Assembly: GCA_028718605.1 (NCBI GenBank)
Contig: JAQULM010000001.1
Location: 337,073 to 401,072, forward strand
Direction: 5' to 3'
Source of the DNA: Patescibacteria group bacterium
GTDB lineage: Bacteria; Patescibacteriota; Patescibacteriia; UBA10025; JAHIVO01
Length of the DNA: 64,000 bases
Part shown: piece by piece, positions 7,798 through 28,833 of the stretch
How the letters are laid out: each line of letters starts with the position of its first letter
Position numbering within the stretch: position 1 is the stretch's first letter
Program-made: the position numbers and the translations under genes
Notes under the pieces: generated by a model
The model's input: the letters and a program-made list of their open reading frames with translations, nothing else
The model's database searches: none
What the model was told of the DNA's origin: nothing

Positions 7798-7832
7798 GAA
7801 TATTTTTTTATATCCGGGCGGCGTCTCTTTTC

Positions 7833-7862: not shown

Positions 7863-7868
7863 CAATGC

Positions 7869-9917
<2,049 letters not shown>

Positions 9918-13646: not shown

Positions 13647-14370
13647 CGAGTATTCTGTCTCCAAATATAAAGACGAGGATCGTTGCTGCCGCCAAGAACG
13701 TACCAAATGGCACCTTGCTCTTCCAACCCTTCCTGTGGGATGCGATCAGGCCGACGCCGACGAGTGAACCGAGCACGTATGCCATAAAAAGGGCTATGAG
13801 GAGTTTCTGGTACCCGAGCATCGCCCCCATAACCGCGCCGAGGCGTATGTCGCCGCCGCCGATCCATTTTCCCCGGGAAACCGCATACTGGAGGGAAAAA
13901 AATCCGCCGCCGATCGCTACCCCAATCACCAAGCTGAGAATGCTGATATCAAGGACAAACAGGGACCCGACGATCGCGATGCAAAACGCAGGTATGCTCA
14001 CGCGGTCTAAAATCAAGTAGTACCTCAAATCGTAAACAAAAATTATTATCAGAAGAGAAGCGTAAGCCAGTAATACATAAAATTCTGCCGACAGATCGAA
14101 ACGCCAGTATAATGCGAGGAATGTTAGCGCTGTGCCGATTTCAACGAGCGGATACTGCCAGGATATCCCCTTCCTGCAGTACCTGCATTTCCCCCAAAGC
14201 ATAAAAAAACTGATGACCGGTACGAGATCCCGCCACCCAAGGTCGTGTTTGCAGAGCGGGCAATACGAACGGCCCTTCATAAAGCTTACGCCGGCGTGCA
14301 GACGGTAAATCACGGCATTTAAAAAACTGCCCACCACTAACCCCAAAATGAGTACAAGCGCAACGACCAT
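13618..14370 (-). CDS. pilD: prepilin peptidase (A24 family)
   Basis: 250-aa polytopic membrane protein with the N-terminal 'CPLCKHDLGWRDL...CRYC' tetracysteine zinc motif and the 'GGGD' catalytic region of PilD/A24 peptidases. Confidence 0.85.
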   Translation of the reverse strand: MVVALVLILGLVVGSFLNAVIYRLHAGVSFMKGRSYCPLCKHDLGWRDLVPVISFFMLWGKCRYCRKGISWQYPLVEIGTALTFLALYWRFDLSAEFYVLLAYASLLIIIFVYDLRYYLILDRVSIPAFCIAIVGSLFVLDISILSLVIGVAIGGGFFSLQYAVSRGKWIGGGDIRLGAVMGAMLGYQKLLIALFMAYVLGSLVGVGLIASHRKGWKSKVPFGTFLAAATILVFIFGDRILDAYTTAISF

Positions 14371-14448
14371 AGTACCTCTCAGTATACCAAAAATAGCTCG
14401 AAAAAGGAATGTTCATTCGACATATCGAGCGCCACCATCGTACTTTTT

Positions 14449-14871
14449 TTATCGAATTCCGCTCGGGGAAAGCACGTGCTTGCCTGCGCTGAGGTCCTGG
14501 TACTCCTTTTCAAGCTGAAACGTAACTCCGTATTTGTCAGCCGCGGGAACCTCGCTTACCGTATAGCGGTACTTCCCCGGATCTTTGATTTCAGCAATCG
14601 ACGAAATATACGTTCCCAGATTGCACTGAGACACAACCATTCCCTTTGTGTTGCACCCGCTTTCAGCCGCTCCTTCATAGCTCGCAGTATCACTAAACAG
14701 AAGCTCGAAAGCGGCCTGCACCCGTGCCATATCAGAAAGCCGCATGGCATCACGTGCTTTCGCGCGCTCATTGTTAATGAGGAAAAAAGCGCCCCCGATA
14801 ACGATGCAAAAAACACCGGCTATTATAATTATCGCGGGCAATGAGATCCCTTTCTGTGATGGAACGTGCAT
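14449..14871 (-). CDS. pilin-fold-like membrane-anchored protein (no canonical G-1/E+5 prepilin motif)
   Basis: 140 aa. An N-terminal hydrophobic anchor is followed by 'RAKARDAMRLSDMARVQAAFELLFSD', which mirrors the pilin alpha1-helix continuation (compare 'ARDARRVSDLSQLRLGLALYF' in the adjacent pilin). Confidence 0.45.
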   Translation of the reverse strand: MHVPSQKGISLPAIIIIAGVFCIVIGGAFFLINNERAKARDAMRLSDMARVQAAFELLFSDTASYEGAAESGCNTKGMVVSQCNLGTYISSIAEIKDPGKYRYTVSEVPAADKYGVTFQLEKEYQDLSAGKHVLSPSGIR

Positions 14872-14920: not shown

Positions 14921-15409
14921 TTAACCCCCTGGTAATGTATCGCATGACGCCGATTCACCGAAAACACCAGTGGAATAAAAAAACCGGGATGTATAATTCA
15001 CGCTTTCCTTATAAAAACACAAGATATAGTTCCGGTGTTCAAGCGTCTCGTTTGTATCATAGAAATAATGATAGTTGGCGTTATTGATCGGGTCGATGAT
15101 ACGACGTCCAAGATGCACAGGAACGAGCGGGTTACCAATCTCTGAAAAAACCGATCCATCGACTCCCGCATTACTCAGGTCCGGCCCGTTACCGCCGTTT
15201 GCGACGGGTGTAGGATACGCCTTGTGATCTTCGAAGTAGAGTGCGAGCCCGAGCCGAAGTTGGGAAAGATCTGAAACGCGCCGCGCATCACGCGCGGACT
15301 CATTCGCATCGCGGAGGCTGGTAAGCCCCATAACGGCAAGGATGCCGATAATCGCGATAACAACGAGCAATTCGATGAGCGTGAAACCGCGGTGAGATTT
15401 GGATACCAT
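14921..15409 (-). CDS. type IV pilin (PilA-like)
   Basis: 162 aa. 'MVSKSHRG|FTLIELLVVIAIIGILA' is the canonical class III signal with F+1 and E+5, followed by 'ARDARRVSDLSQLRLGLALYF'. It has its own promoter upstream. Confidence 0.8.
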   Translation of the reverse strand: MVSKSHRGFTLIELLVVIAIIGILAVMGLTSLRDANESARDARRVSDLSQLRLGLALYFEDHKAYPTPVANGGNGPDLSNAGVDGSVFSEIGNPLVPVHLGRRIIDPINNANYHYFYDTNETLEHRNYILCFYKESVNYTSRFFYSTGVFGESASCDTLPGG

Positions 15410-15436
15410 ATAAACAATTATATCGACTATACGGTT

Positions 15437-15464
15437 ATTATAGCGTAGCCGAAACCAGCGTCAA
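15437..15464 (-). promoter_or_regulatory. sigma70-like promoter for pilin 14921..15409 (-35 TTGACG, 16-nt spacer, -10 TATAAT)
   Basis: Read on the minus strand as TTGACGctggtttcggctacgcTATAAT, about 28 nt upstream of the pilin ATG. Confidence 0.35.
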
Positions 15465-15476
15465 TCAACAGAGTAA

Positions 15477-18434
15477 CTACTCAGTTTGCGCATCCGAATA
15501 TTCTTCCGGCGGCTGATAAGCTTTATCAAACATGGCGGCTTCCCCAAAATGCTTCGCCGCGCTCTCAGTATCCCCGAGTGAATCATAGATATGCCCGAGC
15601 CTGCCATGAAGCAACCCAATCTCATACAGTATCTCCTCTCTATCCTGCACGACCCAAATCTGCGAATCGCGAAGCGATGGATCATACCGTGAAACTGCAT
15701 CCTCGAGCAGTACGCGCGCCTCCTCGATTCGGTCGCTGTACGCGTAGGCAGAAGAAAGTAAAAAGTACAGCACTGGCTTGCCGATAGGGTTCAGCTCAAT
15801 CCCCCGCTTCAAATACCGTTCAGCCGCCGCGTAGTCTTTGGCGAGAAGATAGTAACGGCCAAGGCGTTCGTACGGTCTCCAGTCATGGCTGCTGAGGCTG
15901 ATCGTCCGCTCAAATTCTGAAACGAACAGTTGCCGGTACAACGATACGTTCTGGGCATCCGTCGCGAGGTAGTACGCCTGCGCAAGGCCGTAGTGTAAGT
16001 CGTAATTCAATGGGTCCAGGCGCTGCGCAGTCTTCAGCGATGAGAGTGCGGCATCGTACTCGAGATCTTCCATCTGGCGGATGCCGGCGGTCTGCAATGT
16101 TGATGAGGCGAACAGCAATAAACCGCCGAGCATGCCAAGGGCAGCCATGGCGGGAAGGGCCGTGCGGACCGCGCCGCTATAAACTGCGCCGACCGCTCCG
16201 CGTGAAATTGCTGGCTGTTCTCGCCCACGCTGGATTAGAAATAGTTTATACACGCATCCGAGGGTTATAAAAAAAATGATTAGGTTGGTCGGGAACTGCC
16301 AATCAAGTTCCACGAAACCGTGCGTCAGCGCGCCGAGGAGCCCCATGCTCAATCCAAGCATGAGCGCCTGGTCAGTTTTTCGCGTTAGCTGATGGATCTG
16401 CCGCAAACTGGCACCAATGACAAAAAGAATTGATCCGACAAACCAAACAAATACAATACCGCCAACGATCCCCAATTCTGTAAAAAATTTCAGGTATATA
16501 TTATGCGGATCAATGGAATAATAACGGATATCTGTGAGGTACTGGCGGTACAAAATTTTATACGTCTCGAGCCCCGTGCCAATGATCGGGTGGTCGCGGA
16601 ACGAATCAAGCGCACCCTGCCAGAAATGAAGTCGTGCCGTAACCGCATTTTCTTCCGGAGTTTCGGATGAAAAACCGACATCAGCGGCAACAGTAGACGG
16701 CGCAGTACCGGTCTGCCCGGCCTGGGCTTGTGCCTCCTTGACCTGTACCAACGCCCAGCGGCCCGCAACCACGATCAGCGCAATCATCCCAATAGTCAGG
16801 ATAGTGCGAAGTATCTTGCGCTTGCGCTGTATTGAAAAAAATAGTACCACCCCAAGCGGCACGATGCTCGATAACCATGCCCCGCGTGAATATGTCAGCA
16901 CAAAAGTAAGCGTGAAGAGCGCCATCAGTGCGCCATAAGCTATCCGGCGCTTGGTTGTTTCCGCAAAAAGAAGGAATGAAAACGCAAGCGGCAAAGCGTA
17001 CAGGAGAAATCCCGCAAACGGATTATGCTGATAAAACGTCGAAATCGCGCGCAGGTACCCGAAAAACTGCGTTTGGAGAAAAAAGTAAATTCCGATAATT
17101 GAAAGTATGACAGCGAGCAGTACGATAAGCGCGCCGATTTTCTGCGCTTCGGCGTGGGACGTAATAAGGTACACGGTGCCGAAAAACAGCGCAAGGTACG
17201 GCACCCAATGCATGAATGCGGCATAGCTGTCGTACGGCGATACCGAATAGAGTATTGAAGCAAGCATTACTAAGAGAAGAAGCGCAAGCGGAAGTATAAT
17301 ATTGAATCGGAATGGAATCTTCCCCTGCAGGGGTTGCTTCCCTGACCGGATGACGAAAAACAGAAACGCGAACGCCATGACGAATATAAACGTCTGGGCG
17401 AAGAGGTCGCGGCCACCGGTAAAAAAGCTCGGCACGATCGCGACAAGCGCGAGCATGATGACGGACATGAGCTCACGTGCGTTCTTGATTTCGAGGAAAT
17501 AGTACAGGACCCCGAACCCCAAGGCGAATGCCCGGCCGATGATGAAAAATGGTGCGAGGGCACCCTCGATGAACCCGACTCGAAACCCGCGGACTGTCAG
17601 CGGCATAACCAGGGCGATGAGTATTGCTACTTCAGCAATCAGGGCATACCGGACTTCCGGAATCAACGGCAAGACTACGGCAGTGAGGCATGTACCGAAA
17701 AATCCAATAATCTGTGCTTTCAGTGTCTGCGGGGTATAGGAATCACGTAATAGTTTCCTCGGATAGTTTTTATACACGTCCATCCGCCAGTACGAACGCC
17801 AGAACTTTATCCGAAGGTAATCCATGAACTTTGTAGGATGATCGTGGTATACGATAGCACTCCGGGTAAAAACGATTCGGTGTTGTTTTTCAGATAACTT
17901 ATATGCGAGTTGCACATCCTCACTCATCCGCAATTTTTCGTCAAATCCCTCAAGCGAACGGAAAACTTCCGCGCGAATCGCGCCCGCCGAGAAATCCATG
18001 AAATCCAGGCCTTTTGAGCGGGCCATTTTGTCATACCGCTCCTCAAACTCCACCTGCACGAGCCGCGCAACGATACCGGGCTGTTTTGTCCGATACACGC
18101 CCTTGACTGCTTGTACCGACGCATCGGCGAACGGCTTCGCCATTTCCTCGGCCCACTGCCTGTCGGCCTCACAATCAGCATCGATAAAAAGAAGGATATC
18201 ACCACTTGCTTGGCGTGCCCCACAATTCCGTGCAGCTGCAGGTCCCCGGTTCGGCTCGCGGCAGTACCGGACACCAGAAAACTTTCGGACTACCCGCGCC
18301 GTAGCATCAGAAGAGCCATCGTCGATGACGATAATCTCGTATCTGTCTCGGGGGAGCGTCTGATGGAAGAGCGACTTCAGGCACCGTTCAATAGTCCTTT
18401 CGCCGTTAAATACTGGGACAATTATGGAAATCAT
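15477..18434 (-). CDS. fusion protein: GT2 glycosyltransferase + polytopic Wzy_C (O-antigen ligase/polymerase-like) domain + C-terminal TPR repeats; candidate O-oligosaccharyltransferase
   Basis: 985 aa. The N-terminus 'ISIIVPVFNGERTIERCL...YEIIVIDDGSSD' is a GT2 domain. About 12 TM helices follow, containing 'TYSRGAWLSS' and 'RLHFWQGALDSFRDHPIIGTGLETY', which are the Wzy_C family motifs. The C-terminus carries TPR-like repeats ('YDLHYGLAQAYYLA', 'YERLGRYYLLAKDYAAAERYLKRGIELNP'). Its ATG overlaps the upstream GT stop (TAATG). Confidence 0.75.
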   Translation of the reverse strand: MISIIVPVFNGERTIERCLKSLFHQTLPRDRYEIIVIDDGSSDATARVVRKFSGVRYCREPNRGPAAARNCGARQASGDILLFIDADCEADRQWAEEMAKPFADASVQAVKGVYRTKQPGIVARLVQVEFEERYDKMARSKGLDFMDFSAGAIRAEVFRSLEGFDEKLRMSEDVQLAYKLSEKQHRIVFTRSAIVYHDHPTKFMDYLRIKFWRSYWRMDVYKNYPRKLLRDSYTPQTLKAQIIGFFGTCLTAVVLPLIPEVRYALIAEVAILIALVMPLTVRGFRVGFIEGALAPFFIIGRAFALGFGVLYYFLEIKNARELMSVIMLALVAIVPSFFTGGRDLFAQTFIFVMAFAFLFFVIRSGKQPLQGKIPFRFNIILPLALLLLVMLASILYSVSPYDSYAAFMHWVPYLALFFGTVYLITSHAEAQKIGALIVLLAVILSIIGIYFFLQTQFFGYLRAISTFYQHNPFAGFLLYALPLAFSFLLFAETTKRRIAYGALMALFTLTFVLTYSRGAWLSSIVPLGVVLFFSIQRKRKILRTILTIGMIALIVVAGRWALVQVKEAQAQAGQTGTAPSTVAADVGFSSETPEENAVTARLHFWQGALDSFRDHPIIGTGLETYKILYRQYLTDIRYYSIDPHNIYLKFFTELGIVGGIVFVWFVGSILFVIGASLRQIHQLTRKTDQALMLGLSMGLLGALTHGFVELDWQFPTNLIIFFITLGCVYKLFLIQRGREQPAISRGAVGAVYSGAVRTALPAMAALGMLGGLLLFASSTLQTAGIRQMEDLEYDAALSSLKTAQRLDPLNYDLHYGLAQAYYLATDAQNVSLYRQLFVSEFERTISLSSHDWRPYERLGRYYLLAKDYAAAERYLKRGIELNPIGKPVLYFLLSSAYAYSDRIEEARVLLEDAVSRYDPSLRDSQIWVVQDREEILYEIGLLHGRLGHIYDSLGDTESAAKHFGEAAMFDKAYQPPEEYSDAQTE

Positions 18435-19300
18435 TACGGTATAGTTTTTAGCACAGCACGGTAGTCTATTAATTCCCCGCTCTCTGGCAAGCGCCGTATG
18501 CCGAGTTCAAGCCGCAGTGCCGCACGAACGATGGCGCAGCTTGCTCTGCTGCGGTACTGGTAAAAAAAACGCAGGAGTCCGATCCGCTGGTTAATAAACT
18601 TATTATAGCGTTTTTCGGGCGTTTTACCTAAATCATGATGCATGACTGTTGCGTCCGGGCAATACCCGACCTGCCATCCTGCGCGGCGCATGCGGTAGCA
18701 TAGTTCAACATCCTCCATGTACATGAAATACCGCTCGTCAAACATGCCGGCGCGCTGGAGCGCCGTCCGGCGGATCAGCATGCACGACCCGGCAACCCAA
18801 TCCGGATACTGAATATGCGAATACACCGGCGCGCGCCGCTCAAAATATACAGGGACTACTGCATTGATAACCGGGATACGGTCTCCGATTAGTTTTAATA
18901 CCGTGGGAAAACGGCCGATCGAATGCTGCAACGTACCGTCGGGGTTTTCGAGCCGTGCGCCTGCAACACCCACGGCCGGATGCGAACGCAAAAATTCAAG
19001 GAGCGCATCAACAGCACCCTCTTTAACAACCATGTCCGTATTCAACAGGAGGACAAATTCTCCTTCAGACGACCGGATGCCCTGGTTGCATGCACGCGCA
19101 AAACCAACGTTCTCGCTGTTTCGTATGCATAAAACGCTCGGCAATTTCTCAAGCCCGGCAGCCGTGCCATCTGTCGAGTTATTGTCTACGGCGATAATCT
19201 GGGTGTCAATTTTTTCCGTCGCGCGCATGACAGACTCGAGGAACGGGACGATATACCGCGCAGAGCTGTGTGTTACAAAAATGATTGAAAGAGTACGCAT
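18434..19300 (-). CDS. GT2-family glycosyltransferase
   Basis: 'LSIIFVTHSSARYIVPFLESV...IIAVDNNSTDGT' is a GT2 N-terminus with a DxD-type region. The track start at 19330 is GTG. The ATG at 19300 overlaps the upstream stop (ATGA). Confidence 0.75.
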   Translation of the reverse strand: MRTLSIIFVTHSSARYIVPFLESVMRATEKIDTQIIAVDNNSTDGTAAGLEKLPSVLCIRNSENVGFARACNQGIRSSEGEFVLLLNTDMVVKEGAVDALLEFLRSHPAVGVAGARLENPDGTLQHSIGRFPTVLKLIGDRIPVINAVVPVYFERRAPVYSHIQYPDWVAGSCMLIRRTALQRAGMFDERYFMYMEDVELCYRMRRAGWQVGYCPDATVMHHDLGKTPEKRYNKFINQRIGLLRFFYQYRSRASCAIVRAALRLELGIRRLPESGELIDYRAVLKTIP

Positions 19301-20274
19301 CAGGAGTCTATGGAAAAATTCTCTTGCCACTCTCGGAATTGAGAGCTTCCTAACCGGTTCAGTTTCGCAACTAAAGCGCGCTTTCTCAACATCGCCGGGA
19401 GGAAACGAAGAACACTTAACTTGATCCGTGTATGCATCACAGCGCGCTCGAATACAGTGCCAGCAGTGCTCTGGTATGTCACTGGATTCCGCAGTGCACG
19501 CGGCCAGAGCGCGATTGGGTACAGCTTGATCGCCGAAAAAACCCTGTTCCGTCCCGAATAAAAACGCTTCCTGTTATCCCTCCACTGTGACGTGGTAGCG
19601 GACACCTTGTGGTACACCACCGCGGTGGGAATGAACATACATTTCCACCCAGCAAGCCGTATGCGTAATCCTAAATCTGAATCCTCGATGTAAGCAAAAT
19701 GGTCACTGTCAAAATAGTCATCGCCGAGTTTGGATTCCTCCAGCGCCTCCCTGCGATACAGTGCGGCGGCGGCGCACGCGGTCAGACACTCTTCTTTCTT
19801 GAAAAACGTATCAGATTTACCGTGCCCTCGCGGCCCGACTTTCAGGCTGCCGCGGTAATAAAAATCGCCCGCAGAATCAACGATCGTGCGGTTATCGAAA
19901 TACAGCAGTTTGCTCGCGCACACGCCAATCCTTGGATCAGCATCTGCGGCAGATACCAGTTCAGAAAGCCAGTTCTCCTTAACCTCCGTGTCGTTGTTTA
20001 AACATACGACGTACCGGCACCCTGGATCCTCGAGCGCTCGCCGGATACCAACATTATTACCTTCAGCAAAGCCAAAATTTTTTCCCGTTTCAATTATCTG
20101 AACATTGGAAAATTTCTCGCGAACATAGGCGGCTGAACCGTCAGTCGAACCGTTATCAACGAATAGTACCTCGAAGTCTTTATATGTTTGGAGATAAACA
20201 CTCGATAGGCACGTCTGCAGATGCTCGAGACCATTCCAATTTAAAATTATAATAGATACTCGAGCACTATTCAT
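19300..20274 (-). CDS. GT2-family glycosyltransferase
   Basis: 324 aa. 'VSIIILNWNGLEHLQTCLSSVYLQTYKDFEVLFVDNGSTDGS' is the GT2 signature. Confidence 0.75.
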   Translation of the reverse strand: MNSARVSIIILNWNGLEHLQTCLSSVYLQTYKDFEVLFVDNGSTDGSAAYVREKFSNVQIIETGKNFGFAEGNNVGIRRALEDPGCRYVVCLNNDTEVKENWLSELVSAADADPRIGVCASKLLYFDNRTIVDSAGDFYYRGSLKVGPRGHGKSDTFFKKEECLTACAAAALYRREALEESKLGDDYFDSDHFAYIEDSDLGLRIRLAGWKCMFIPTAVVYHKVSATTSQWRDNRKRFYSGRNRVFSAIKLYPIALWPRALRNPVTYQSTAGTVFERAVMHTRIKLSVLRFLPAMLRKRALVAKLNRLGSSQFREWQENFSIDS

Positions 20275-20422
20275 GAATCGTCTCCGTTAACATTTATCTG
20301 CTGACCAATTAAAATATGCATGCGTTTTAAACAATCGAGTACTGGATTTTTTATAAAAATGTTACGTATCAATAGTACCTCTCAATTCGACTAATATCAA
20401 GGTTTACAGTGATGCGATTTCA

Positions 20423-20452
20423 TTGAATCATGCACTTGTATATGTTATAAAT
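20423..20452 (+). promoter_or_regulatory. sigma70-like promoter for 20508 gene (-35 TTGAAT, 17-nt spacer, -10 TATAAAT)
   Basis: TTGAATcatgcacttgtatatgtTATAAAT sits in the AT-rich divergent intergenic region 20275..20507. Confidence 0.3.
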
Positions 20453-20507
20453 AGAACATGCCGAAACTTTAATTGCTGTTTACCGACAATCTGACACAAA
20501 TAAAAGA

Positions 20508-22268
20508 ATGGATAACTTTTTCTATAAAATCATACGATATCTTTACTGGAGACTCCGCTGGTTGCTCAGTAAATGTAAGGCACTTTTTTTTCAAGTATTT
20601 GCGAACCAGAACAAGGAGCCCCGATATAAATACCATAAACGATTAATTCCTCGGGCAGCGATCGAGGCATTAGCGGCCCAGCCGAAAATATCAGTTATCA
20701 TGCCTGTCTTTAATATCGATTTGAAGTGGCTGAATAAAGCCATCAACTCGGTTAAAAATCAATCATACGCGAATTGGGAGCTGTGTATTGCCGACGATTG
20801 TTCAACAAATGAAAAAACCGTGCGCTTCCTAAAAAATATTCAGGACCAGCGCATACGAATTGTTTTTTTAAAAAAGAACGCCGGAATAGCAGCCGCTTCA
20901 AATGAAGCTTTGAAGCTCGCTTCAGGGGAATATGTCACTTTCCTTGATCATGATGACGAACTTACGCCAGATGCTTTATACGAAGTAGCGAAAAAAATTA
21001 ATGAAACCGGCGCTGAATTAATATACTCAGACGAAGATAAAATTACACCCAGCGGAACGTATATCGATCCGCATTTCAAACCAGACTACTCCCCCGATTT
21101 ATTACTTTCCCAAAATTACATTTGCCATCTATCAGCATACAAGAAACGAATCATCGATGCCCTTGGTGGATTGCGACGTGGCTTCGATGGATCGCAAGAC
21201 CATGATTTGCTGTTGAGGTTTACCGAAAAAACTGCTGCAATATCACATATTTCAAAAGTGCTCTACCACTGGAGAGCAGTCCCGGGATCAGTTGCCCACA
21301 CCTTCTCCTCGAAATCATATGCCTGGGAAGCGGGCCAAAGGGCATTGCAGGAAGCATTGTATAGAAGAAATATTGGCGGTACGGCATTCAGAGGCAAATT
21401 CCCAGGCACGTATCGAATAAAGAGAACCATAAAGAAAAAACCCTTAATCAGCATTATCATTCCGTTTAAAAATCACGTCAGTGAATTAAAAAAACTAATA
21501 CACTCGATCACAACGAAATCAACGTACGATAATTTTGAAATTATTGGCATTGATAATAACAGCACAGAACAAGAAACGATCGATTTTATCAAAGCGATAC
21601 AAAAACAGGATGCGAGAATAAAAATATTCGCCGACAACGCCCCGTTCAACTACTCTCGGCTCAATAATTATGGTGCTTCACGCGCACGCGGGGAACATCT
21701 CCTACTACTGAATAATGATACCGAAATTATCTCCCCCGACTGGATAGAGCGCTTGCTTTGCCATTCACAGCGGGACGAAGTAGGAATTGTGGGTGCAAAA
21801 CTTTACTATTTCAACAACACGATCCAGCACGCAGGAATCATTATTGGAATCGGCGGCGTTGCGGGGCACCCGCATAAATTTCTCGATAAAAAACAGCGTG
21901 GCTACATGTGTAGGCCTCATTTGACGCAGAACGTATCAGCAGTTACAACCGCATGCGCTATGATAAAAAGTTCCCTGTACAAGCAACTGGGGGGGCTGGA
22001 TGAAAAAAACCTGCCAATCGCGTTTAATGATGTTGATTTCTGTTTAAGGCTCCGCGAAAAAGGTTACCTGAATATTTTCACTCCCGAATGCGAGCTCTAC
22101 CATTATGAATCAAGGTCAAGGGGGCAGGAAGATTCTCAGGAAAAGAAGGACCGCTTCGCCGGTGAAGTCCGCTTTATGCAAAAACGACATCAGGCAATAG
22201 TAAGTGCTGGCGACCCCTACTACAACCCGAACCTCACCTTGGAAAATGAAAACTTTTGGTTGAAGTAA
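20508..22268 (+). CDS. two-domain GT2 glycosyltransferase (tandem GT2 modules)
   Basis: 586 aa. The first GT2 module is 'ISVIMPVFNIDLKWLNKAINSVKNQSYANWELCIADDCST' and the second is 'ISIIIPFKNHVSELKKLIHSI...FEIIGIDNNSTEQET'. Confidence 0.75.
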   Translation: MDNFFYKIIRYLYWRLRWLLSKCKALFFQVFANQNKEPRYKYHKRLIPRAAIEALAAQPKISVIMPVFNIDLKWLNKAINSVKNQSYANWELCIADDCSTNEKTVRFLKNIQDQRIRIVFLKKNAGIAAASNEALKLASGEYVTFLDHDDELTPDALYEVAKKINETGAELIYSDEDKITPSGTYIDPHFKPDYSPDLLLSQNYICHLSAYKKRIIDALGGLRRGFDGSQDHDLLLRFTEKTAAISHISKVLYHWRAVPGSVAHTFSSKSYAWEAGQRALQEALYRRNIGGTAFRGKFPGTYRIKRTIKKKPLISIIIPFKNHVSELKKLIHSITTKSTYDNFEIIGIDNNSTEQETIDFIKAIQKQDARIKIFADNAPFNYSRLNNYGASRARGEHLLLLNNDTEIISPDWIERLLCHSQRDEVGIVGAKLYYFNNTIQHAGIIIGIGGVAGHPHKFLDKKQRGYMCRPHLTQNVSAVTTACAMIKSSLYKQLGGLDEKNLPIAFNDVDFCLRLREKGYLNIFTPECELYHYESRSRGQEDSQEKKDRFAGEVRFMQKRHQAIVSAGDPYYNPNLTLENENFWLK

Positions 22269-22333
22269 TTCCAGTTTCTGCACCAAAAATCCAGGATCGG
22301 CTATAATCCCGGTTAATTATATACTACTAACAT

Positions 22334-23221
22334 TTACTTTTTCTTTTGAAACGGTATTTTTGTTTTTACTTTGTGCAAGAATGTAGCAATTTTCCAGCTT
22401 CGGGAATTGTAAATAGTTTGAATTTCAGCTTCAAGCTTGCCCATTTTTTGCTGAGCGCGCGCGCGTTCTTGCTGAAGCTCAAACACCTGCGCGTCCAATC
22501 TATTGAGCTTCGTGCCGTCGCCAATAACAATCGAGCTGCGAACCGTCTGACCGATCGGCTGTTTGCTGCATACGCCGAGAATGTATCGATGCTGCTCGGG
22601 ATTCTGGCTCACGGACCTATACACATCGATGTTCTTGATGCAGGCATCAGTCTTCTCCTGCAATTGATCTTCCGAAGAGATACCATCGCTTATAATATTG
22701 TTTTGATAGAAAAAACATAGGTGGGGGAAATACTGCGCGAGAAATGCTTTAAATCCCTGCAACGTAAATTCCTTTTTATGGAACTGGTTTCCTGAAGGAT
22801 AGACGGGCACGTTGGGGGTTGAAATTATCAGCATTCCCGCATCTTTCAAGACGCGCCGCACTTCCTTCAAAAAAACGTCTTGGCCTCCGAAATGTTCGAT
22901 TGTTTCGAACGAAACGACGATATCGACTGAATGGTCATCCAAAGGGATTGCATGGGCGTCGCCTACGAGATACCGGGTTCGTGCTGTTGAATAGGTCTTG
23001 TTAGAATAGCGGATAGCTTCATCTGAAGAGTCAACACCAATAACCCTCGCAGCGCCATGATCTGCCAAGTATTTCGACCCGTACCCGCTGCCGCAGGCGA
23101 TATCGAGGACTGTTTTATTTTTTACAAATTGGGCAGCAAAAGCATAACGAGCTATATGCTCCAAATAATAAGGCTCCTCTTTATCAAATTCTGGGATCAT
23201 ACGCTCACCCGTTGATTTCAT
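22334..23221 (-). CDS. class I SAM-dependent methyltransferase with C-terminal coiled-coil
   Basis: 'VLDIACGSGYGSKYLADHG' is the glycine-rich SAM-binding motif I, and 'IVVSFETIEHF' is the post-I region. The C-terminal roughly 60 aa ('LNRLDAQVFELQQERARAQQKMGKLEAEIQTIY') is predicted coiled-coil. The track start at 23236 is TTG; the ATG at 23221 is used. Confidence 0.7.
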   Translation of the reverse strand: MKSTGERMIPEFDKEEPYYLEHIARYAFAAQFVKNKTVLDIACGSGYGSKYLADHGAARVIGVDSSDEAIRYSNKTYSTARTRYLVGDAHAIPLDDHSVDIVVSFETIEHFGGQDVFLKEVRRVLKDAGMLIISTPNVPVYPSGNQFHKKEFTLQGFKAFLAQYFPHLCFFYQNNIISDGISSEDQLQEKTDACIKNIDVYRSVSQNPEQHRYILGVCSKQPIGQTVRSSIVIGDGTKLNRLDAQVFELQQERARAQQKMGKLEAEIQTIYNSRSWKIATFLHKVKTKIPFQKKK

Positions 23222-23222
23222 A

Positions 23223-23915
23223 CTACGCTTTATCAATGATGAAAATATACCGCAATGGCACTCCTGAATTGAATAATGAAAATAGTGGATTAAAAAATGT
23301 AAAACTCTTCATTGTTTTATGAGCGAAAAATCTCGGGAATCTGAATTGCATCGTAATTAAATAATACCATATACGGATGTTTGCATTCTTTTTTATTTGT
23401 ATGCGCAATGAATCGCCTCCCGCAGTGCTTTTGATATAGTGGATAATTTCGTCTCGATCCGGATGACCATACTTGAGATGCTGGTCGAGCATCTCGAGCT
23501 TTTCAACATGATGCCCGTAGTAATAATCTCCAAACCTTTTTACCATCTTCCAGCCTTCGCGTCCACATGGCACTGCCAAGATTATTCTTTTCTTTGTAAC
23601 GCGTATCAGCTCTCCAATCATTGCTTTCTTGTCTGCCGGTTTTTCGATATGCTCGATGGCGTCAACGCAAATTGAAATATTGAAAAAATTATCTGGATAC
23701 TGAAGATTCGTTCCGCGAGATCTTACGTTTGTAACATTTGGCAGAGTACTCCCGCTTTCGATAAAATCATAATTAATGAATTTGCATTCAGGCATCAATT
23801 CTCCGATTCCGCCGAGGACCCCACCCCCTACTTCTAACACCTCCTGCCTCCGATAATCGGCAACTTCTCGGATTGCCTTGACGACAGGAATATACCGCTG
23901 TAATGTATCGAGCAT
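23223..23915 (-). CDS. SAM-dependent methyltransferase-like protein
   Basis: 230 aa. 'VLEVGGGVLGG' is motif I-like and 'CVDAIEHIEKP...LIRVTKKRIILAVP' are Methyltransf_11/23-like motifs. Confidence 0.6.
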   Translation of the reverse strand: MLDTLQRYIPVVKAIREVADYRRQEVLEVGGGVLGGIGELMPECKFINYDFIESGSTLPNVTNVRSRGTNLQYPDNFFNISICVDAIEHIEKPADKKAMIGELIRVTKKRIILAVPCGREGWKMVKRFGDYYYGHHVEKLEMLDQHLKYGHPDRDEIIHYIKSTAGGDSLRIQIKKNANIRIWYYLITMQFRFPRFFAHKTMKSFTFFNPLFSLFNSGVPLRYIFIIDKA

Positions 23916-23921
23916 ATATTT

Positions 23922-25103
23922 TTAAAACCTCCACGTATACGGGAACTGAATAAAGCCGAAATACTTTTTTTGATTTTCATTTGCGATATAAAATCGGAAA
24001 ATTCTTTCAACTCTGTCAAAAATCAAATCTCCGCTTTTGTCGGCGACTGCAGGCGTAACATAGTACATGCCATCGAGGAACGGGTTGTTTTGGATAATAA
24101 ACTCAACCTGTTTTTCACCCTCAACTTTTTCTACCACCAAATGGTCGATGCCCATATTGATGCCTGAAAGCAGTAAGCCCTGCTCGTTTGCAAACTCTAA
24201 GCCAAAAATGACGTTATGCACTGCCCGATTTGTTTTACAAAAAATTTTGATGCGTATTGTTTCACCCGTTTTAAAAGTTTTTTTCTCCTCACCTTGCTCA
24301 TTAGAAAAAGCTACTTTAGTAATATAAATCCCGCTTGTCGCCCGTGCCTCGATATTTTCTGGCGTCGTGTCAGTAAATGATTGGCCATATGCAGTAATCA
24401 TCTCCCTCGGTTTTCCGATATTTTTCACCTTTCCGCCCTCAATAAATACAACGCGATCACAAAATCTTTCGATCGAACCCAAATCGTGGCTTACGAAAAT
24501 AATGGTCTTTTTCTCGCGCTTTAGCCTATCAAATGTGTTGAAGCATTTTCTCTGGAAATCTGCATCCCCAACCGCTAAGACTTCGTCGACGAGCAAAATA
24601 TCAGCGTCTGACTGTATTGCCGTAGAAAACGCAAGCCGTACCTGCATACCTGAAGAAAAGTTCTTCAGCTTCTGGTCTACAAAGTTTTCAAGTTCTGCAA
24701 ATTTAATAATGCTATCGAACTTCTGATCGATCGCCGTGCGCGATAGTCCAAGAATTGCTCCATACAGGTACACATTCTCCCGCGCCGTCAAATCTGGTTG
24801 AAAACCTACGCCAAGTTCAAGGAAGGGGGCTATCGAACCAAGTACGGCAATTCTGCCAGAATTCGGCTGCAAAATCCCAGCGATAATTTTTAAAAGCGTT
24901 GATTTTCCGGATCCATTGCGGCCGATGATTCCGAGAAATTCCCCCTCCCTCACACTGAATGAAACTTCCCGAAGCGCATGAAACTGTTCATAGGTGCGGT
25001 GACTGAATGCGCTCACAAAATACTCCTTGAGCGTGGTTTTACGTTCATGGGGGATTTTGAAAACCTTAGTTATTTTATTTATTTCAATAATCGTTTCGAC
25101 CAT
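23922..25103 (-). CDS. wzt: polysaccharide ABC exporter ATP-binding protein with C-terminal carbohydrate-binding extension (Wzt/TagH-like)
   Basis: Walker A 'GIIGRNGSGKSTLLKIIAGI', ABC signature 'FSSGMQVRLAFS' and Walker B 'ILLVDE' are present. A roughly 150-aa C-terminal extension (residues about 250-400) matches the Wzt terminal-residue-binding domain. The track start is TTG; the ATG at 25103 (MVETIIEINKITKVF) is used. Confidence 0.85.
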   Translation of the reverse strand: MVETIIEINKITKVFKIPHERKTTLKEYFVSAFSHRTYEQFHALREVSFSVREGEFLGIIGRNGSGKSTLLKIIAGILQPNSGRIAVLGSIAPFLELGVGFQPDLTARENVYLYGAILGLSRTAIDQKFDSIIKFAELENFVDQKLKNFSSGMQVRLAFSTAIQSDADILLVDEVLAVGDADFQRKCFNTFDRLKREKKTIIFVSHDLGSIERFCDRVVFIEGGKVKNIGKPREMITAYGQSFTDTTPENIEARATSGIYITKVAFSNEQGEEKKTFKTGETIRIKIFCKTNRAVHNVIFGLEFANEQGLLLSGINMGIDHLVVEKVEGEKQVEFIIQNNPFLDGMYYVTPAVADKSGDLIFDRVERIFRFYIANENQKKYFGFIQFPYTWRF

Positions 25104-25146
25104 ACACTTTCTTTTCTTCTCAACCAAGATTGGCTTGGAACACGTA

Positions 25147-25875
25147 TTAGACTTTCTTTAATAATAATACAATATTTATCTCATATAAGTTCGAATCGAG
25201 TATTATAAAATTAGAAAGCTCCCGCTGCAACCATTGCATGAAGGCCATGAATGATTGATAGTCCCAAACATGCACGTGAATGCTTGCTTGCCCGCGATAC
25301 GCCCCTTCGCATTGGAACGTGTCAGTAATCTCATTAACCGTCACCATAAAATCCTCGTAGTGACCACGCGAAACACTCGTGGTTTTCTGATTAAAATCAT
25401 CCTGCAAATGCTGCAGCGGAGTGCGCTGCCGGTTTTTGTCAAACGTGAAACGCTTGTCAGGAACTACGATATACACCATGCCTCCCTTTTTAACGACCCT
25501 GAGCCATTCCTGTATCGCGCTCCCAGGGTCCGGAAGGTGCTCAAGCAAGTGCGAGTTACACACAAAATCAAGTGAATTATCTGGAATCGTGTCGAGATTC
25601 TGGGCGTTGCAGATATAATCCACATGTATAATTTTATCATTGGGGACATTCTTATGCGGCTTATAAATCTCTTTCAATTTCTCCGTGCTTGCTACATCAA
25701 CATACCGCATCATCGTATTTGAATTAATAGGAAATGGTGACGCAAGCGCACCAATTTCAATTCCTTCCCCAGAAAAATGATCATGCACGAATTCTTTCCA
25801 ATTCGGTCCAATAATTTTATAACTTCCAACCAACCGTTCTCGCCATTTATTGAGTAACGCCTGAATACGTCTCAT
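25147..25875 (-). CDS. SAM-dependent methyltransferase (Methyltransf_11-like)
   Basis: 242 aa. 'LDFVCNSHLLEHLPDP' and 'LRVVKKGGMVYIVVP' are typical class I methyltransferase motifs. Confidence 0.65.
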   Translation of the reverse strand: MRRIQALLNKWRERLVGSYKIIGPNWKEFVHDHFSGEGIEIGALASPFPINSNTMMRYVDVASTEKLKEIYKPHKNVPNDKIIHVDYICNAQNLDTIPDNSLDFVCNSHLLEHLPDPGSAIQEWLRVVKKGGMVYIVVPDKRFTFDKNRQRTPLQHLQDDFNQKTTSVSRGHYEDFMVTVNEITDTFQCEGAYRGQASIHVHVWDYQSFMAFMQWLQRELSNFIILDSNLYEINIVLLLKKV

Positions 25876-25925
25876 TTGAAAGGCTTTCGGTTATTTTTTT
25901 ATTACACGATCCCGAATAATTCACG

Positions 25926-26693
25926 CTATAAATCCTCAGCAAAATACGGCTCCCGTTTTTTAAACACGAGGTACCCGACAACGAATAGTGCGATTGCCAT
26001 AAAGAATGATGCGATAACTCCCTTCAAATCAGGGGCAATTCCATAAATAACGACGTCCCGTGAATATTTTATAATCCGTGTCATCGGGTTCATGAAATAC
26101 CAGAAATGGTATTTCGCGGGAATCATGCTCATAGAGTAAATAATCGGCGTCGCCCAAAAACCGATCTGAAGCATGACCTCCCAGATATGGGACAGATCGC
26201 GGACTTTTATATTCAATGCGGAGATGAGCAGCCCAAGCCCCGTGGTGATCAAATAAAGTTCAAGCAGAAGGAGCGGAAATAATACTACGGTCGCGTGTAC
26301 CGGAACGCCGCTGGCAATAAAAAAAATCATAAACACGATAAGATTCAGGAAAAGCGTAATCAGGGAAGTAACCGTGGAGGCAACCACGATAATGGTGCGC
26401 GGGAATGACACGCGTGCAATCAAACCGCCTTTGTTCACCAAATTACTGATAGCGGTAGTCGTGCCTTCAGCGAGGTACCCCCAGAGAATAACGCCAAGCA
26501 GCAAATACAGGTTGTACTGCGCAATATCGAACCGCATGAATACAGAAAAAACCAAATACAAGACGCCGAAAAGGAGGAGCGGCTTTACCAGTGACCACAG
26601 GTACCCGAGCACGGATCCCTGGTACCGGAGCTTGAAATCCGCGATGGCAAGTTCGCGCACCAGGTTCCAGTATCGTTGGCGTTTTATCGTCAT
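25926..26693 (-). CDS. wzm: ABC-2 type polysaccharide exporter permease
   Basis: 255 aa with six TM helices. 'ADFKLRYQGSVLGYLWSLVKPLL' is the Wzm/ABC-2 N-terminal signature. It lies immediately upstream of the methyltransferase and wzt genes. Confidence 0.8.
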   Translation of the reverse strand: MTIKRQRYWNLVRELAIADFKLRYQGSVLGYLWSLVKPLLLFGVLYLVFSVFMRFDIAQYNLYLLLGVILWGYLAEGTTTAISNLVNKGGLIARVSFPRTIIVVASTVTSLITLFLNLIVFMIFFIASGVPVHATVVLFPLLLLELYLITTGLGLLISALNIKVRDLSHIWEVMLQIGFWATPIIYSMSMIPAKYHFWYFMNPMTRIIKYSRDVVIYGIAPDLKGVIASFFMAIALFVVGYLVFKKREPYFAEDL

Positions 26694-26728
26694 GATGCGA
26701 AAATGGAGAATACTGTTTCGTAATTCCT

Positions 26729-26757
26729 ATTGTACCACTGTAATAACCGTTTTTCAA
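26729..26757 (-). promoter_or_regulatory. sigma70-like promoter for wzm-MT-wzt-MT-MT operon (-35 TTGAAA, 17 nt, -10 TACAAT)
   Basis: Read on the minus strand as TTGAAAaacggttattacagtggTACAAT, about 36 nt upstream of the wzm ATG. Confidence 0.35.
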
Positions 26758-26798
26758 CGGTATCATCCGCCGTAGCGCTCCACGAAGGCGAACAAATT

Positions 26799-26834
26799 CA
26801 AAAAGTGCCTGCACATTCTATGAGGCACTTTTTG
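26799..26834 (-). terminator. rho-independent terminator after pilin 26872..27372
   Basis: Stem AGTGCCT/AGGCACT (26804-26810/26823-26829) with a 12-nt loop. On the minus strand it is followed by TTTTTGAATTTG, and on the plus strand by TTTTT as well, so it is bidirectional. Confidence 0.55.
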
Positions 26835-26871
26835 ATATGGAATAACTTACCTTCTACTTACTTGCCAAGTC

Positions 26872-27372
26872 CTATCCGCAAGTTCCTGCATCTGGAGAAT
26901 TGTCTCCGGACGTACCGTCAGACTTGATCCAGAAGTGTGTACTGCCGTCGCCGCCCTCGAGCGGTGTTGTCAGCACAAAGTCCTGCCAATCCTCACCAAC
27001 AGCTCCACAGGTTTGGTACGTATAGTGGTTGGTCGCATCATTGACCGGATCCTCCACCGCTTTACTAATATACTCACTGCAGATCGGATTCGCAGCTAGG
27101 TCGGTCGTACAGTCAGTATTGAAGATCGAGCCGTCTGCGTCCTGAACAGTGCTCACATCACCATCGTCAGTTACATCAGACGGATACGCATTTTGATGAT
27201 CATCAGCATACAGCACCAGCGCGGTCTTGACCTGTGAGAGGTCGGACTTTCTGGTTGCGTCGCGCGCCTTTTCACGGGCGCCGTTCAACGCGACCAAGCC
27301 GATGGTTGCCAAGATACCGATGATGGCAATAACGACCAATAACTCAATAAGGGTGAAACCTTTCCTTCTCAT
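26872..27372 (-). CDS. type IV pilin (PilA-like; probable major pilin)
   Basis: 'MRRKG|FTLIELLVVIAIIGILATIGLVALNGAREKARDATRKSDLSQVKTALVLY'. The ATG at 27372 has a strong SD (AGGAGGTGA) 7 nt upstream. The track N-terminus adds 25 codons with no support. The gene has its own promoter and terminator. Confidence 0.85.
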   Translation of the reverse strand: MRRKGFTLIELLVVIAIIGILATIGLVALNGAREKARDATRKSDLSQVKTALVLYADDHQNAYPSDVTDDGDVSTVQDADGSIFNTDCTTDLAANPICSEYISKAVEDPVNDATNHYTYQTCGAVGEDWQDFVLTTPLEGGDGSTHFWIKSDGTSGDNSPDAGTCG

Positions 27373-27627: not shown

Positions 27628-28833
27628 CTATATCGCGCCTGATAAGTTGTATATCGGAAGGATGATTGCCGTTACCAGAAAGCCGACGGCGATGCCGAGA
27701 ATGACCATAATCACCGGCTCGATCAGGGCTGTCAAGTTTTTCAATGAATTTTCAAGTTCCCTCGTATAAAAATCAGCGACTTTCATCAGTATCCGGTCAA
27801 GCTGGCCGGATTGCTCTCCGACGACCATCATCTGCGAGAGCATCAGGGGCACGTCTTTGCTTTTCATGAACAGCGTGGTGATGGACGACCCCCCCTCAAC
27901 CACCCGAATCGTTGCCTTGGTCAAGTCTTGATAAATAGTATTGCCGATAACATCTGCCACAATATCGAGCGACCGTGTCAACGGCACGCCGGAGGTGAGC
28001 AGGGTCGAGAGCGAACGTGCAAAGCGCGCTAAATACATTCTGGTGAAAATTGCACCGACTATCGGTACGCGAATTTTCATCTTATCGATGACGTGCTGGC
28101 CAGCCGCGGTCTTTTTATACGACCGGAAACCAACGACACAGCCAGCGACGATTGCGGAAATAATCCACCAGTAATTCCGGATTACATCGCTGAACCCGAT
28201 CAGGATTTTCGTCGGCAGGGGCAGGGCAACGCCGCCGGCCGTGAGAATTTCCGTGATTTGGGGCAGAACAAAGATGACCATCATCACGCCGACGCCAAGC
28301 AAGGCGCAAAAAATGAACGCGGGGTAGATCATCGCGCCTTTTGCCTTGCCGCGCATGTCATAATCCTTTTCCTGCTGGTCCGCGAGATAGTCGAGGATTT
28401 CGTCCAACCGTCCGGTGGTTTCTGCGGAACGGACCATCTGTATGAAAAAATTGCCGAATTCCTTCGGGTACTTGCCGAGCGCTTGCGACAGCTTCGCGCC
28501 GCCGTCAACTTCATCCGCAACGTCAGAGATAATCCGCTCGAACTGTTTATTTTGCGTCTGCCGCGCCAGCACCTTGAGCGCCCGGACAAGCGGGACATTC
28601 GACGTCATCATGACTGAGATCTGCCGTGCGAAGACAACAATATCTTTCGGCTTCACGCGACTGCCGACCTGGAAGCCCTTGAGGAACGGCAACGCATGAT
28701 GCTCTTTCAGTGATACAATAAACAACTGCTTGTCACGCAGAATTCCGTACGCGATATTTTCGCTCGGCGCGACCACGACGCCGCTGATCAGGTCGCCACC
28801 TGGATTCCGTGCTTTATAACTATACTCGGCCAT
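27628..28833 (-). CDS. pilC: type IV pilus assembly platform protein (GspF/PilC family)
   Basis: 401 aa. The duplicated T2SSF domain architecture and three TM segments are typical of PilC. Confidence 0.9.
   Translation of the reverse strand: MAEYSYKARNPGGDLISGVVVAPSENIAYGILRDKQLFIVSLKEHHALPFLKGFQVGSRVKPKDIVVFARQISVMMTSNVPLVRALKVLARQTQNKQFERIISDVADEVDGGAKLSQALGKYPKEFGNFFIQMVRSAETTGRLDEILDYLADQQEKDYDMRGKAKGAMIYPAFIFCALLGVGVMMVIFVLPQITEILTAGGVALPLPTKILIGFSDVIRNYWWIISAIVAGCVVGFRSYKKTAAGQHVIDKMKIRVPIVGAIFTRMYLARFARSLSTLLTSGVPLTRSLDIVADVIGNTIYQDLTKATIRVVEGGSSITTLFMKSKDVPLMLSQMMVVGEQSGQLDRILMKVADFYTRELENSLKNLTALIEPVIMVILGIAVGFLVTAIILPIYNLSGAI

Follow-up and report, generated by a model that had tools for sequence, protein, structure and literature searches.

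To our knowledge, protein glycosylation that depends on an ATP-binding cassette (ABC) transporter has so far been known for the S-layers of Gram-positive bacteria. The slg gene clusters combine a Wzm/Wzt exporter, a methyl-capping enzyme and an oligosaccharyltransferase (OTase) with a Wzy_C domain (PMC2943079). Among PglL homologues, 21 of 31 are encoded next to pilin genes (PMC3643930), and TfpW is a pilin-adjacent enzyme with a periplasmic tetratricopeptide repeat (TPR) domain (10.1101/2020.04.19.049825). A study of Saccharibacteria pili left pilin glycosylation unconfirmed, as a guess from site predictors (PMC11623550), and our literature search found no publication linking O-antigen-ligase genes to pilins in Patescibacteria (Candidate Phyla Radiation, CPR). 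Here we analyse a stretch of 64,000 nucleotides from a Patescibacteria group bacterium (contig JAQULM010000001.1, positions 337,073 to 401,072; hereafter the window), in which nine glycan genes are bracketed by two prepilin genes within a type IV pilus locus. By gene content, the closest known system is the S-layer glycosylation of Geobacillus and Paenibacillus; by position, the closest are PglL, TfpO and TfpW. On balance, we favour a protein O-glycosylation system built into the pilus locus, which would add an ABC-exported, probably methyl-capped polymer to pilin.

The ligase fusion and its place between pilin genes

Read from high to low coordinates, the locus begins with PilB, a response regulator, PilC and the first prepilin, pilinB. 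These are followed by the permease Wzm, a 242-aa methyltransferase, the ATPase Wzt, a 230-aa protein, a 300-aa methyltransferase, a tandem family 2 glycosyltransferase (GT2), the single glycosyltransferases GT2_324 and GT2_298, and a 985-aa protein whose gene lies directly upstream of the second prepilin gene, pilinA. Beyond pilinA are p140, PilD, three minor pilins, a 523-aa protein and LigA. All genes of the pilus locus and the glycan island are on the minus strand except that of the tandem GT2. A first-pass annotation, made by a model from the letters alone, had described two type IV pilins with class III signals around the block, with pilD and the minor pilins on one side and pilC and pilB on the other, and this layout was confirmed for every gene. 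Both prepilins have a class III signal, G↓FTLIE, and a hydrophobic N-terminal helix, and the peptidase gene pilD is present in the same locus.

The 985-aa protein had been read as a fusion of GT2, Wzy_C and TPR domains, and hidden Markov model searches bear this out. Pfam Wzy_C (PF04932) matched residues 503-663 with 83.4 bits against a gathering cutoff of 31.7, and Pfam likewise recognised the GT2 and TPR parts. The Wzy_C domain spans residues 331-757 approximately, and is followed by an extra transmembrane helix (758-776) and the TPR domain (777-985). A full-length AlphaFold2 model from 7 orthologues was poor (mean predicted local distance difference test, pLDDT, 63), and Foldseek then matched the GT2 domain only. 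A model of residues 320-985 built from 41 homologues was confident (pLDDT 91.4, predicted template modelling score 0.91), and in it the Wzy_C domain has a WaaL-like polytopic fold. Across the 41 Wzy_C homologues R601 is invariant, and R517 and H644 are present in at least 90%. The catalytic residues are R215, R288 and H338 in WaaL and R224, R298 and H349 in PglL (PMC3643930); R517, R601 and H644 match this Arg/Arg/His set in order and spacing, the mapping having been made without superposition.

Hydropathy and the positive-inside rule assign six loops with one to five Lys or Arg each (363-376, 425-434, 492-497, 537-544, 674-689 and 735-757) to the cytoplasm. The catalytic loop, 564-654, and the TPR domain are therefore both predicted to lie on the same, outer side of the membrane, and R517, R601 and H644 all fall at outer-face positions in this topology. 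The GT2 domain has intact DDGS and DADC motifs. The N-terminus of the fusion is 43% identical over 338 aa to that of a protein, P0008, which continues as CoA_binding_3 and Bac_transf, that is, as a WbaP-type priming phosphoglycosyltransferase; other relatives of the GT2-membrane module are fused to an LPG_synthase_TM domain. As the module is also joined to WbaP-type primer enzymes, it probably acts on a polyprenyl-diphosphate-linked sugar at the inner membrane face.

A role of the fusion protein as a Wzy polymerase or IctB was rejected, the pathway being of the ABC type and the IctB match reaching 55 bits against a cutoff of 366. As far as we know, CPR bacteria in general are without lipopolysaccharide (LPS). 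One studied CPR genome has no lipid A/LPS biosynthesis genes (PMC5220378). On this basis we took a WaaL-type acceptor to be absent and rejected WaaL-type LPS ligation.

We compared the locus with three sets of sequences: orthologues of the fusion protein, 47 loci from a metagenome scan anchored on PilC, and loci found by looking up stand-alone members of the Wzy_C-TPR type. Some of these loci are repeats of one another (L004 and L007, L005 and L024, L008 and L025, L006 and L009). Full-length fusion orthologues, 37-55% identical, were found in six other genomes, all of them Patescibacteria. A pattern scan on the GT2 linker of the fusion returned mostly GT2-only relatives from DPANN archaea and Desulfovibrio, together with three full-length fusion loci (L007-L009), of which only L008 was new. 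In five of the seven genomes (the window, L004, L005, L008 and L019) the fusion gene occupies the same pilin-flanked slot, between pilinB and pilinA or p140, in a common backbone that runs from PilB, the response regulator and PilC to PilD, the minor pilins and LigA. The two ends of the island are conserved: Wzm/Wzt are found next to pilinB, and towards PilD come GT2_324, GT2_298 and the fusion gene. Its centre is low in GC and different in every genome.

In the PilC scan, the module followed pilinB in every locus with a PilC at least 66% identical and enough sequence. In about 15 loci with PilC 40-49% identical, the pilin gene is followed directly by PilD and there is no module. One exception in this group, L030, has a 606-aa TMEM260-like/PMT_2 gene (12941-14761; 116 bits), belonging to the GT-C protein O-mannosyltransferase family, among three prepilin genes. 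In L023 (7270-10258) the slot contains no more than an orthologue of GT2_324 and a Wzy_C-TPR protein of 653 aa, whose identity to the fusion protein is 21-25%. This stand-alone type forms a larger Patescibacteria family of 35 clusters, and all three further members that were looked up (L070-L072, at about 6900-10000, one of them from Kerfeldbacteria) have the order pilin, GT2, Wzy_C-TPR, pilin, p140, PilD, which places four of four stand-alone genes in the same slot. Their Wzy_C-TPR proteins are 53%, 41% and 38% identical to the L023 protein, and the stand-alone proteins as a group are 38-65% identical among themselves. Over all related pilus loci, a GT2 gene and a Wzy_C-TPR gene stand between the pilins wherever PilC reaches 64% identity. 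These comparisons indicate that a GT2 and a WaaL-fold/TPR enzyme stayed between pilin genes through deep divergence, that the ligase gene was replaced at least once by a non-orthologous one, and that in a cousin lineage the slot is occupied by an unrelated family of protein-glycosylating enzymes. The surroundings of three distant proteins with Wzy_C or Wzy_C-TPR domains (L020-L022) showed neither pilus nor ABC linkage, and are uninformative for this clade.

PilinB, probably the major pilin, has orthologues in all ten related module-bearing loci and is the most constant neighbour of the glycan module. Orthologues of pilinA are present in L004, L008, L023 and L070-L072, and absent from L005 and L019. 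A C-terminal motif of pilinB, LESP..[FYW]W..G.G.[ST][GDE][DE]...C, is kept in all module-bearing loci and is absent in module-less relatives. The W..G.G.[ST][GDE][DE] loop near the C-terminal Cys is a candidate acceptor loop, in a pattern that is confounded by phylogeny. In the pilin-like protein p140 the pilin alpha1-C motif ERAKARDAMRLSDMARVQAAFELL comes after a hydrophobic helix at the N-terminus, but the G↓FTLIE prepilin cleavage motif is missing; its orthologues, 51-61% identical, occur in every clade locus that reaches that far. An internal or C-terminal pilin-like globular domain, without a prepilin signal, was also seen in two large proteins, a 941-aa protein of the window (60333-63158, plus strand) with T2SSG, TSP3 and Calx-beta domains and a 918-aa protein of L006 (14866-17622) with Asn/Thr-rich repeats.

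Exporter, glycosyltransferases and methyltransferases

The exporter and glycosyltransferases of the island were also identified much as first described, with Pfam Glycos_transf_2 in the two single GT2 proteins and in the tandem GT2, and with a Wzm/Wzt pair whose Wzt carries a C-terminal extension (Table 1). Wzm is 57-74% identical in five other islands. Residues 18-395 of Wzt align, carbohydrate-binding domain included, with the full-length ABC-transporter chains 7k2t and 8dku (E 9e-62), which we take to be Wzt of Aquifex aeolicus. The island thus has both parts of an ABC glycan exporter with terminal-residue recognition, Wzm and a Wzt bearing Wzt_C. Of the ten other module-bearing loci, nine have a GT2_324 orthologue with 45-65% identity, L003, L023 and L070-L072 among them, and L006 has only a weak match of 24%. 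The gene for GT2_298 shares a single base with the start of the fusion gene, and has orthologues in L003, L004, L006 and L008. The best solved relative of the tandem GT2 is the two-domain chondroitin polymerase 2z86/2z87 (E 1.2e-23); this likeness fits chain building and makes the protein a candidate chain-polymerising glycosyltransferase.

Three S-adenosylmethionine (SAM) methyltransferases had been proposed. Two of them, of 300 and 242 aa, have clear Pfam matches, and the third, of 230 aa, stays below the cutoff (Table 1). The coiled-coil tail that had been ascribed to one of these enzymes corresponds to a stretch of about 35 residues in the 300-aa protein (approximately five terminal heptads, score 0.75), its coiled-coil nature being read from heptad periodicity. 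The heptads are followed by a basic C-terminal motif, NSRSWKIATFLHKVKTKIP. This tail (window 22334-22400) is common to the L006 orthologue (5306-6154), as NS(R/P)S(W/F)(K/R)IA..LH(K/R)V, and may bind the membrane or a partner.

Methylation, export and ligase type go together across the related loci. Methyltransferase domains are present in all six islands with Wzm/Wzt (the window, L003, L004, L006, L008 and L019) and are missing from all five modules that have no transporter (L005, L023 and L070-L072). An ABC transporter accompanies the fusion form of the ligase in six of seven loci, and the stand-alone form in none of four. The counts are not phylogenetically independent, yet they tie the blocks together. 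In L004 (2313-3698), L007 (3168-4553) and L008 (3925-5307) the Wzt ATPase has a C-terminal SAM methyltransferase in place of Wzt_C (460 aa, ABC_tran and Methyltransf_11), a fusion that may couple capping directly to export. L003 contains, in addition, a weak match to an APH-type kinase.

The GC content is 0.39-0.45 over approximately 20-26 kb, compared with about 0.52 in the flanks, and breaks at about 20.3 kb. Direct and inverted repeats, tRNA genes and integrases were sought at the island borders as signs of a mobile element, and none was found. Each pilin gene had been credited with a promoter of its own. In a scan for sigma-70-like consensus sites, the total in the region did not exceed chance expectation; a promoter is plausible for pilinA, which has the best match of the region (11/12), and the site before pilinB reaches only 9/12. 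A further site (10/12) precedes wzm at 26757-26729, and a terminator-like hairpin is found at 22312-22291, 3′ of the gene for the 300-aa methyltransferase.

Table 1. Features of the pilus locus and glycan island, with coordinates in the window
Feature	Coordinates	Strand	Evidence and remarks
PilD prepilin peptidase	13618..14370	-	A24_N_bact 110 bits and Peptidase_A24 52 bits
p140, pilin-like 140-aa protein	14449..14871	-	Seen directly in sequence; conserved beside PilD
pilinA, second prepilin	14921..15409	-	N_methyl 37.5 bits; leader MVSKSHRG↓FTLIE; directly downstream of fusion gene
Sigma-70-like promoter match	15437..15464	-	TTGACG-16-TATAAT, 11/12, region's best; in 67-bp gap upstream of pilinA
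Fusion protein, residues 777-985	15480..16106	-	TPR domain, predicted extracytoplasmic
Fusion protein, residues 331-776	16107..17444	-	WaaL-fold Wzy_C membrane domain and one extra transmembrane helix
Fusion protein, residues 1-330	17445..18434	-	GT2 catalytic domain (Glycos_transf_2 122 bits), interface helix KFWRSYWRM, first membrane helices
GT2_298, 298 aa	18434..19330	-	Glycos_transf_2 80 bits; TIGR01556 rhamnosyltransferase 71.8 bits, below cutoff
GT2_324, 324 aa	19300..20274	-	Glycos_transf_2 103 bits
Tandem two-module GT2, 586 aa	20508..22268	+	Two Glycos_transf_2 stretches, 180.7 bits; island's only plus-strand gene
Methyltransferase with heptad-repeat helix, 300 aa	22334..23236	-	Methyltransf_11 84 bits; NCBI start 23200
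Possible methyltransferase, 230 aa	23223..23915	-	Methyltransf_11 19.1 bits, below 21.2 cutoff; MftM oligosaccharide methyltransferase 21.5 bits
Wzt, ABC ATPase with C-terminal carbohydrate-binding domain	23922..25127	-	ABC_tran 85.6 bits, Wzt_C 72.9 bits; NCBI start 25103
Class I SAM methyltransferase, 242 aa	25147..25875	-	Methyltransf_11 43.8 bits
Wzm, ABC-2 permease	25926..26693	-	ABC2_membrane 51.3 bits; NCBIfam galactan Wzm/RfbD 59 bits, below cutoff
pilinB, prepilin adjoining PilC	26872..27372	-	N_methyl 36.7 bits; leader MRRKG↓FTLIE
PilC platform protein	27628..28833	-	T2SSF 206 bits; anchor query of synteny survey
Stand-alone response-regulator receiver	28865..29254	-	Between PilC and PilB

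Other genes around the island were noted in passing. The response-regulator receiver gene is kept in nearly all related loci that cover the interval between PilC and PilB, down to a PilC identity of 40%, and is absent in a few of the most distant loci (for example L037 and L049). A 682-aa open reading frame (ORF; 32608-34656, minus strand) lies upstream of the PilO gene, at the position expected for PilN; it has no Pfam match, and its N-terminal region of about 450 residues is proline-rich and of low complexity. After PilM, four consecutive very large membrane-anchored or secreted proteins of 3742, 851, 1958 and 698 aa are encoded (36099-57779, minus strand). Pfam is almost blank for them beyond weak fn3, BNR and DUF6454 matches, and they could be adhesins or alternative glycosylation targets.

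Proposed pathway and alternative readings

The first-pass annotation had concluded that the pilins are O-glycosylated, and synteny and domain evidence support that view, which held up in both checks that had been set for it on sequence: homology of the 985-aa protein to Wzy_C, and linkage of related islands to pilin genes. The acceptor is read from gene neighbourhood, which points to pilinB as the most likely main acceptor and possibly to pilinA as well. Domains, fold, conserved residues and gene neighbourhoods are direct observations; from them we infer the acceptor, the cap, the membrane topology and the order of events, including all of the first four steps. First, a priming phosphoglycosyltransferase encoded elsewhere would make an undecaprenyl-diphosphate (Und-PP)-linked sugar. 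On the inner side of the membrane, GT2_324, GT2_298 and the GT2 module of the fusion would then assemble a conserved reducing-end adaptor, and the tandem GT2 would extend the repeat polymer. In the fourth step, one or more of the methyltransferases would modify, and probably cap, the chain end, and the carbohydrate-binding domain of Wzt would recognise the finished chain for export by Wzm/Wzt. In the fifth, already partly established, the WaaL-fold Wzy_C domain at the outer face would move the glycan from the lipid carrier to Ser or Thr of pilin, and the extracytoplasmic TPR domain would hold the protein acceptor. The ancestral form in this clade may have been a two-gene module of GT2 and Wzy_C-TPR that added a short glycan, of which the window would be an expanded, laterally exchanged, low-GC version.

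Several results weigh against pilin glycosylation of this kind. In the fusion protein neither the PglL_A motif (PF15864), which separates PglL from WaaL (PMC3643930), nor PF11846 was matched at E <= 0.01, and the original description of the enzyme as PglL/TfpO-type therefore holds at the superfamily level only. A TfpO-type C-terminal Ser was sought in the pilins and not found, their ends being G, N, P, C, D, F or L; an internal G-x-[ST] loop is conserved in them and is a candidate site. The Ser/Thr content of pilins did not differ between loci with and without the module. No similarity of the 300-aa methyltransferase to WbdD was found in the PDB at E <= 1e-3, which leaves the proposed WbdD/Wzt logic of a methyl cap supported through the co-occurrence of methyltransferases with Wzm/Wzt and not through homology; the methyltransferases could also methylate internal residues instead. 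As had been pointed out at the outset, no WecA/WbaP-type primer enzyme (Bac_transf or Glycos_transf_4) was detected among 46 scanned ORFs of the window, a set that takes in all long ORFs beyond the pilus locus and the island. Neither a primer enzyme nor a Wzx-type flippase was seen in the window or in any island, so the five transporter-less modules are without an identified flippase. In Escherichia coli O8/O9a, the primer gene also lies outside its cluster.

The related loci add two further points of this kind. L003 (54% identical) and L006 (37%) have everything from Wzm/Wzt to the fusion gene next to a Zincin_1 gene, with no pilus gene closer than 10 kb, which shows that the island need not adjoin pilins. 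The loci that are linked to pili have a single backbone in common, and are thus not fully independent observations. In a neighbour-joining tree the fusion proteins form almost a polytomy, and the tree cannot tell whether L003 left the pilus locus or never entered it. The Zincin_1 neighbours, small metallopeptidase genes at 12965-13342 in L003 and 14000-14356 in L006, suggest a common second insertion site or an ancestral location. As these two islands are unlinked to pilus genes, and as Wzy_C protein OTases are not separable by sequence from lipid or polysaccharide ligases (PMC3643930), other readings of the locus retain some probability.

One of them is an envelope glycopolymer. Here the product of Wzy_C would be a lipoglycan or secondary wall polymer, formed by ligating the exported chain to a glycolipid of the membrane or to the wall, and the pilus locus would be no more than a hypervariable site that tolerates the insertion of surface-structure genes. 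A low GC content and a variable set of genes are indeed features of O-antigen and wall-polysaccharide loci, the best NCBIfam matches of Wzt are teichoic-acid exporters, and two islands are unlinked to pili; the slot between the pilins has nevertheless been retained across deep divergence, and in L030 it is filled by an unrelated family of protein O-mannosyltransferases. The Wzy_C/WaaL fold is common to lipid-acceptor ligases, but an extracytoplasmic TPR domain on a ligase is a trait of the protein OTases WsfB and TfpW (PMC2943079; 10.1101/2020.04.19.049825), and the solved WaaL chain, of 403 residues, lacks such a domain at its C-terminus. With one glycosyltransferase and no exporter, the minimal modules (L023 and L070-L072) are better explained by a short protein-linked glycan. 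We regard a glycopolymer as unlikely.

General protein O-glycosylation, in which pilins would be at most one of many targets, as for Neisseria PglL, and the main targets would be found among other proteins of the cell surface, for instance an S-layer or the giant anchored proteins encoded beyond PilM, appears to us rather improbable. TPR domains bind proteins generically, the L003 and L006 islands are away from pilus genes, and the four very large proteins of the window are encoded 9-30 kb from the island. Such a system has, however, no evident need of a position between pilins, and it is exactly there that the GT2 and Wzy_C-TPR module is kept, down to 38% identity, while other features of the neighbourhood vary. 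The nearest known system by gene content does act on an S-layer protein (PMC2943079), but the island adjoins an S-layer-type gene in no locus; in the window, as in eight other loci, it is type IV pilus genes that flank it.

Very doubtful, finally, is the idea of two unrelated systems side by side, with native-GC GT2_324, GT2_298 and fusion genes for a short pilin glycan and a separately acquired low-GC cassette (Wzm, Wzt, methyltransferases and tandem GT2) for exopolysaccharide export: the GC break, the apparently separate promoter-like site and terminator-like hairpin of the low-GC block, the opposite strand of the tandem GT2 and the existence of modules without any ABC block are in keeping with it, but in L003 and L006 the ABC block is still found with the fusion gene away from the pilus locus, the transporter keeps to loci with the fusion-form ligase in the proportions given above, and an ABC-exported Und-PP-glycan needs a ligase, of which no other (Wzy_C or LCP) was found in the window ORFs scanned or in the Pfam tables of the islands.

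Glycosylation of pilin by the enzymes of the locus thus remains the reading we prefer, and a wider one can be put forward tentatively. A Patescibacteria clade that includes Kerfeldbacteria may have made glycosylation a fixed part of its type IV pilus operon, with repeated lateral exchange enlarging the ancestral pilin-GT2-ligase-pilin module into an O-antigen-like hypervariable cassette. This would give rise to filament 'serotypes' on the host-finding pilus of episymbionts. The GT2-WaaL-TPR fusion would represent a new class of O-oligosaccharyltransferase, in which a single polypeptide unites an early step in the cytoplasm with the last, extracytoplasmic transfer, and the Wzt-methyltransferase fusions of sister islands a new coupling of capping to export.

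Type IV pili are conserved in Patescibacteria, and in cultivated Saccharibacteria they mediate host binding and competition. If pilin does carry a variable, capped polymer encoded in the locus, this polymer would be a tangible factor in the host range of uncultivated episymbionts and in their evasion of phages. ABC-transporter-dependent protein glycosylation would then extend to pili, and the WaaL fold with TPR, with or without GT2, would offer new O-OTase scaffolds for glycoengineering. A GT2 gene and a Wzy_C-TPR gene between pilin genes make a simple genomic marker that can be surveyed across metagenomes.

Comparison with described systems

The E. coli O8/O9a polymannan pathway (WbdA/B/C, WbdD, Wzm/Wzt and WaaL) follows the same logic of primer, adaptor, polymer and cap, with a Wzt whose C-terminal domain binds the cap and a terminating methyltransferase that has a coiled-coil region (PMC3482155, PMC9445017). 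The 300-aa methyltransferase of the window differs in having no WbdD sequence similarity beyond the class I fold, and its predicted coiled coil of about 35 residues is no long ruler. CPR bacteria are not known to have a lipid A-core acceptor, and the ligase described here carries TPR and GT2 domains.

PglL of Neisseria and Acinetobacter and TfpO/PilO of Pseudomonas share with the fusion protein a Wzy_C membrane domain, the conserved Arg/Arg/His residues and a gene beside and co-oriented with a type IV pilin gene. The fusion gene also stands outside any LPS locus. Adjacency to a pilin gene is an established predictor of the substrate in the PglL family, in the proportion of 21 of 31 (PMC3643930). 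Those enzymes are without a GT2 fusion, and their donors are usually single Wzx/Wzy units from LPS or capsule loci, whereas the donor here would be a polymer made in situ and exported by an ABC transporter. The PglL_A motif and the C-terminal Ser acceptor of the pilin are both absent in the present case.

In Pseudomonas aeruginosa Pa5196, TfpW is likewise a polytopic membrane glycosyltransferase encoded directly beside pilA; its C-terminal TPR domain is large and periplasmic, and it modifies pilin with a homopolymer (10.1101/2020.04.19.049825). The GT-C fold of TfpW is ArnT/Emb-like, and the enzyme builds its polymer outside the membrane from single lipid-P-Araf units; the protein described here has a WaaL fold and would be expected to transfer a preassembled Und-PP-linked chain.

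The slg clusters of Geobacillus stearothermophilus NRS 2004/3a and Paenibacillus alvei (Wzm/Wzt, WsaE, WsaB/WsfB) differ from the locus in that the adjacent structural gene encodes an S-layer protein, not type IV pilins, and in that the primer enzyme, WsaP or WsfP, is part of the cluster and not outside it. In the window the OTase is also fused to a GT2-membrane module, and the host is a Patescibacterium. The two nevertheless share ABC-transporter-dependent assembly of a lipid-linked polymer, multi-domain glycosyltransferases and, in the window as a proposed function, a methyltransferase that caps the non-reducing end (PMC2943079). Both have an O-OTase with a Wzy_C domain and an association with TPR, as a C-terminal domain in WsfB and as a separate partner of WsaB, and in both the genes form a low-GC cluster, which adjoins the gene for the target protein in slg and the genes for the likely target, the pilins, in the window (PMC2943079).

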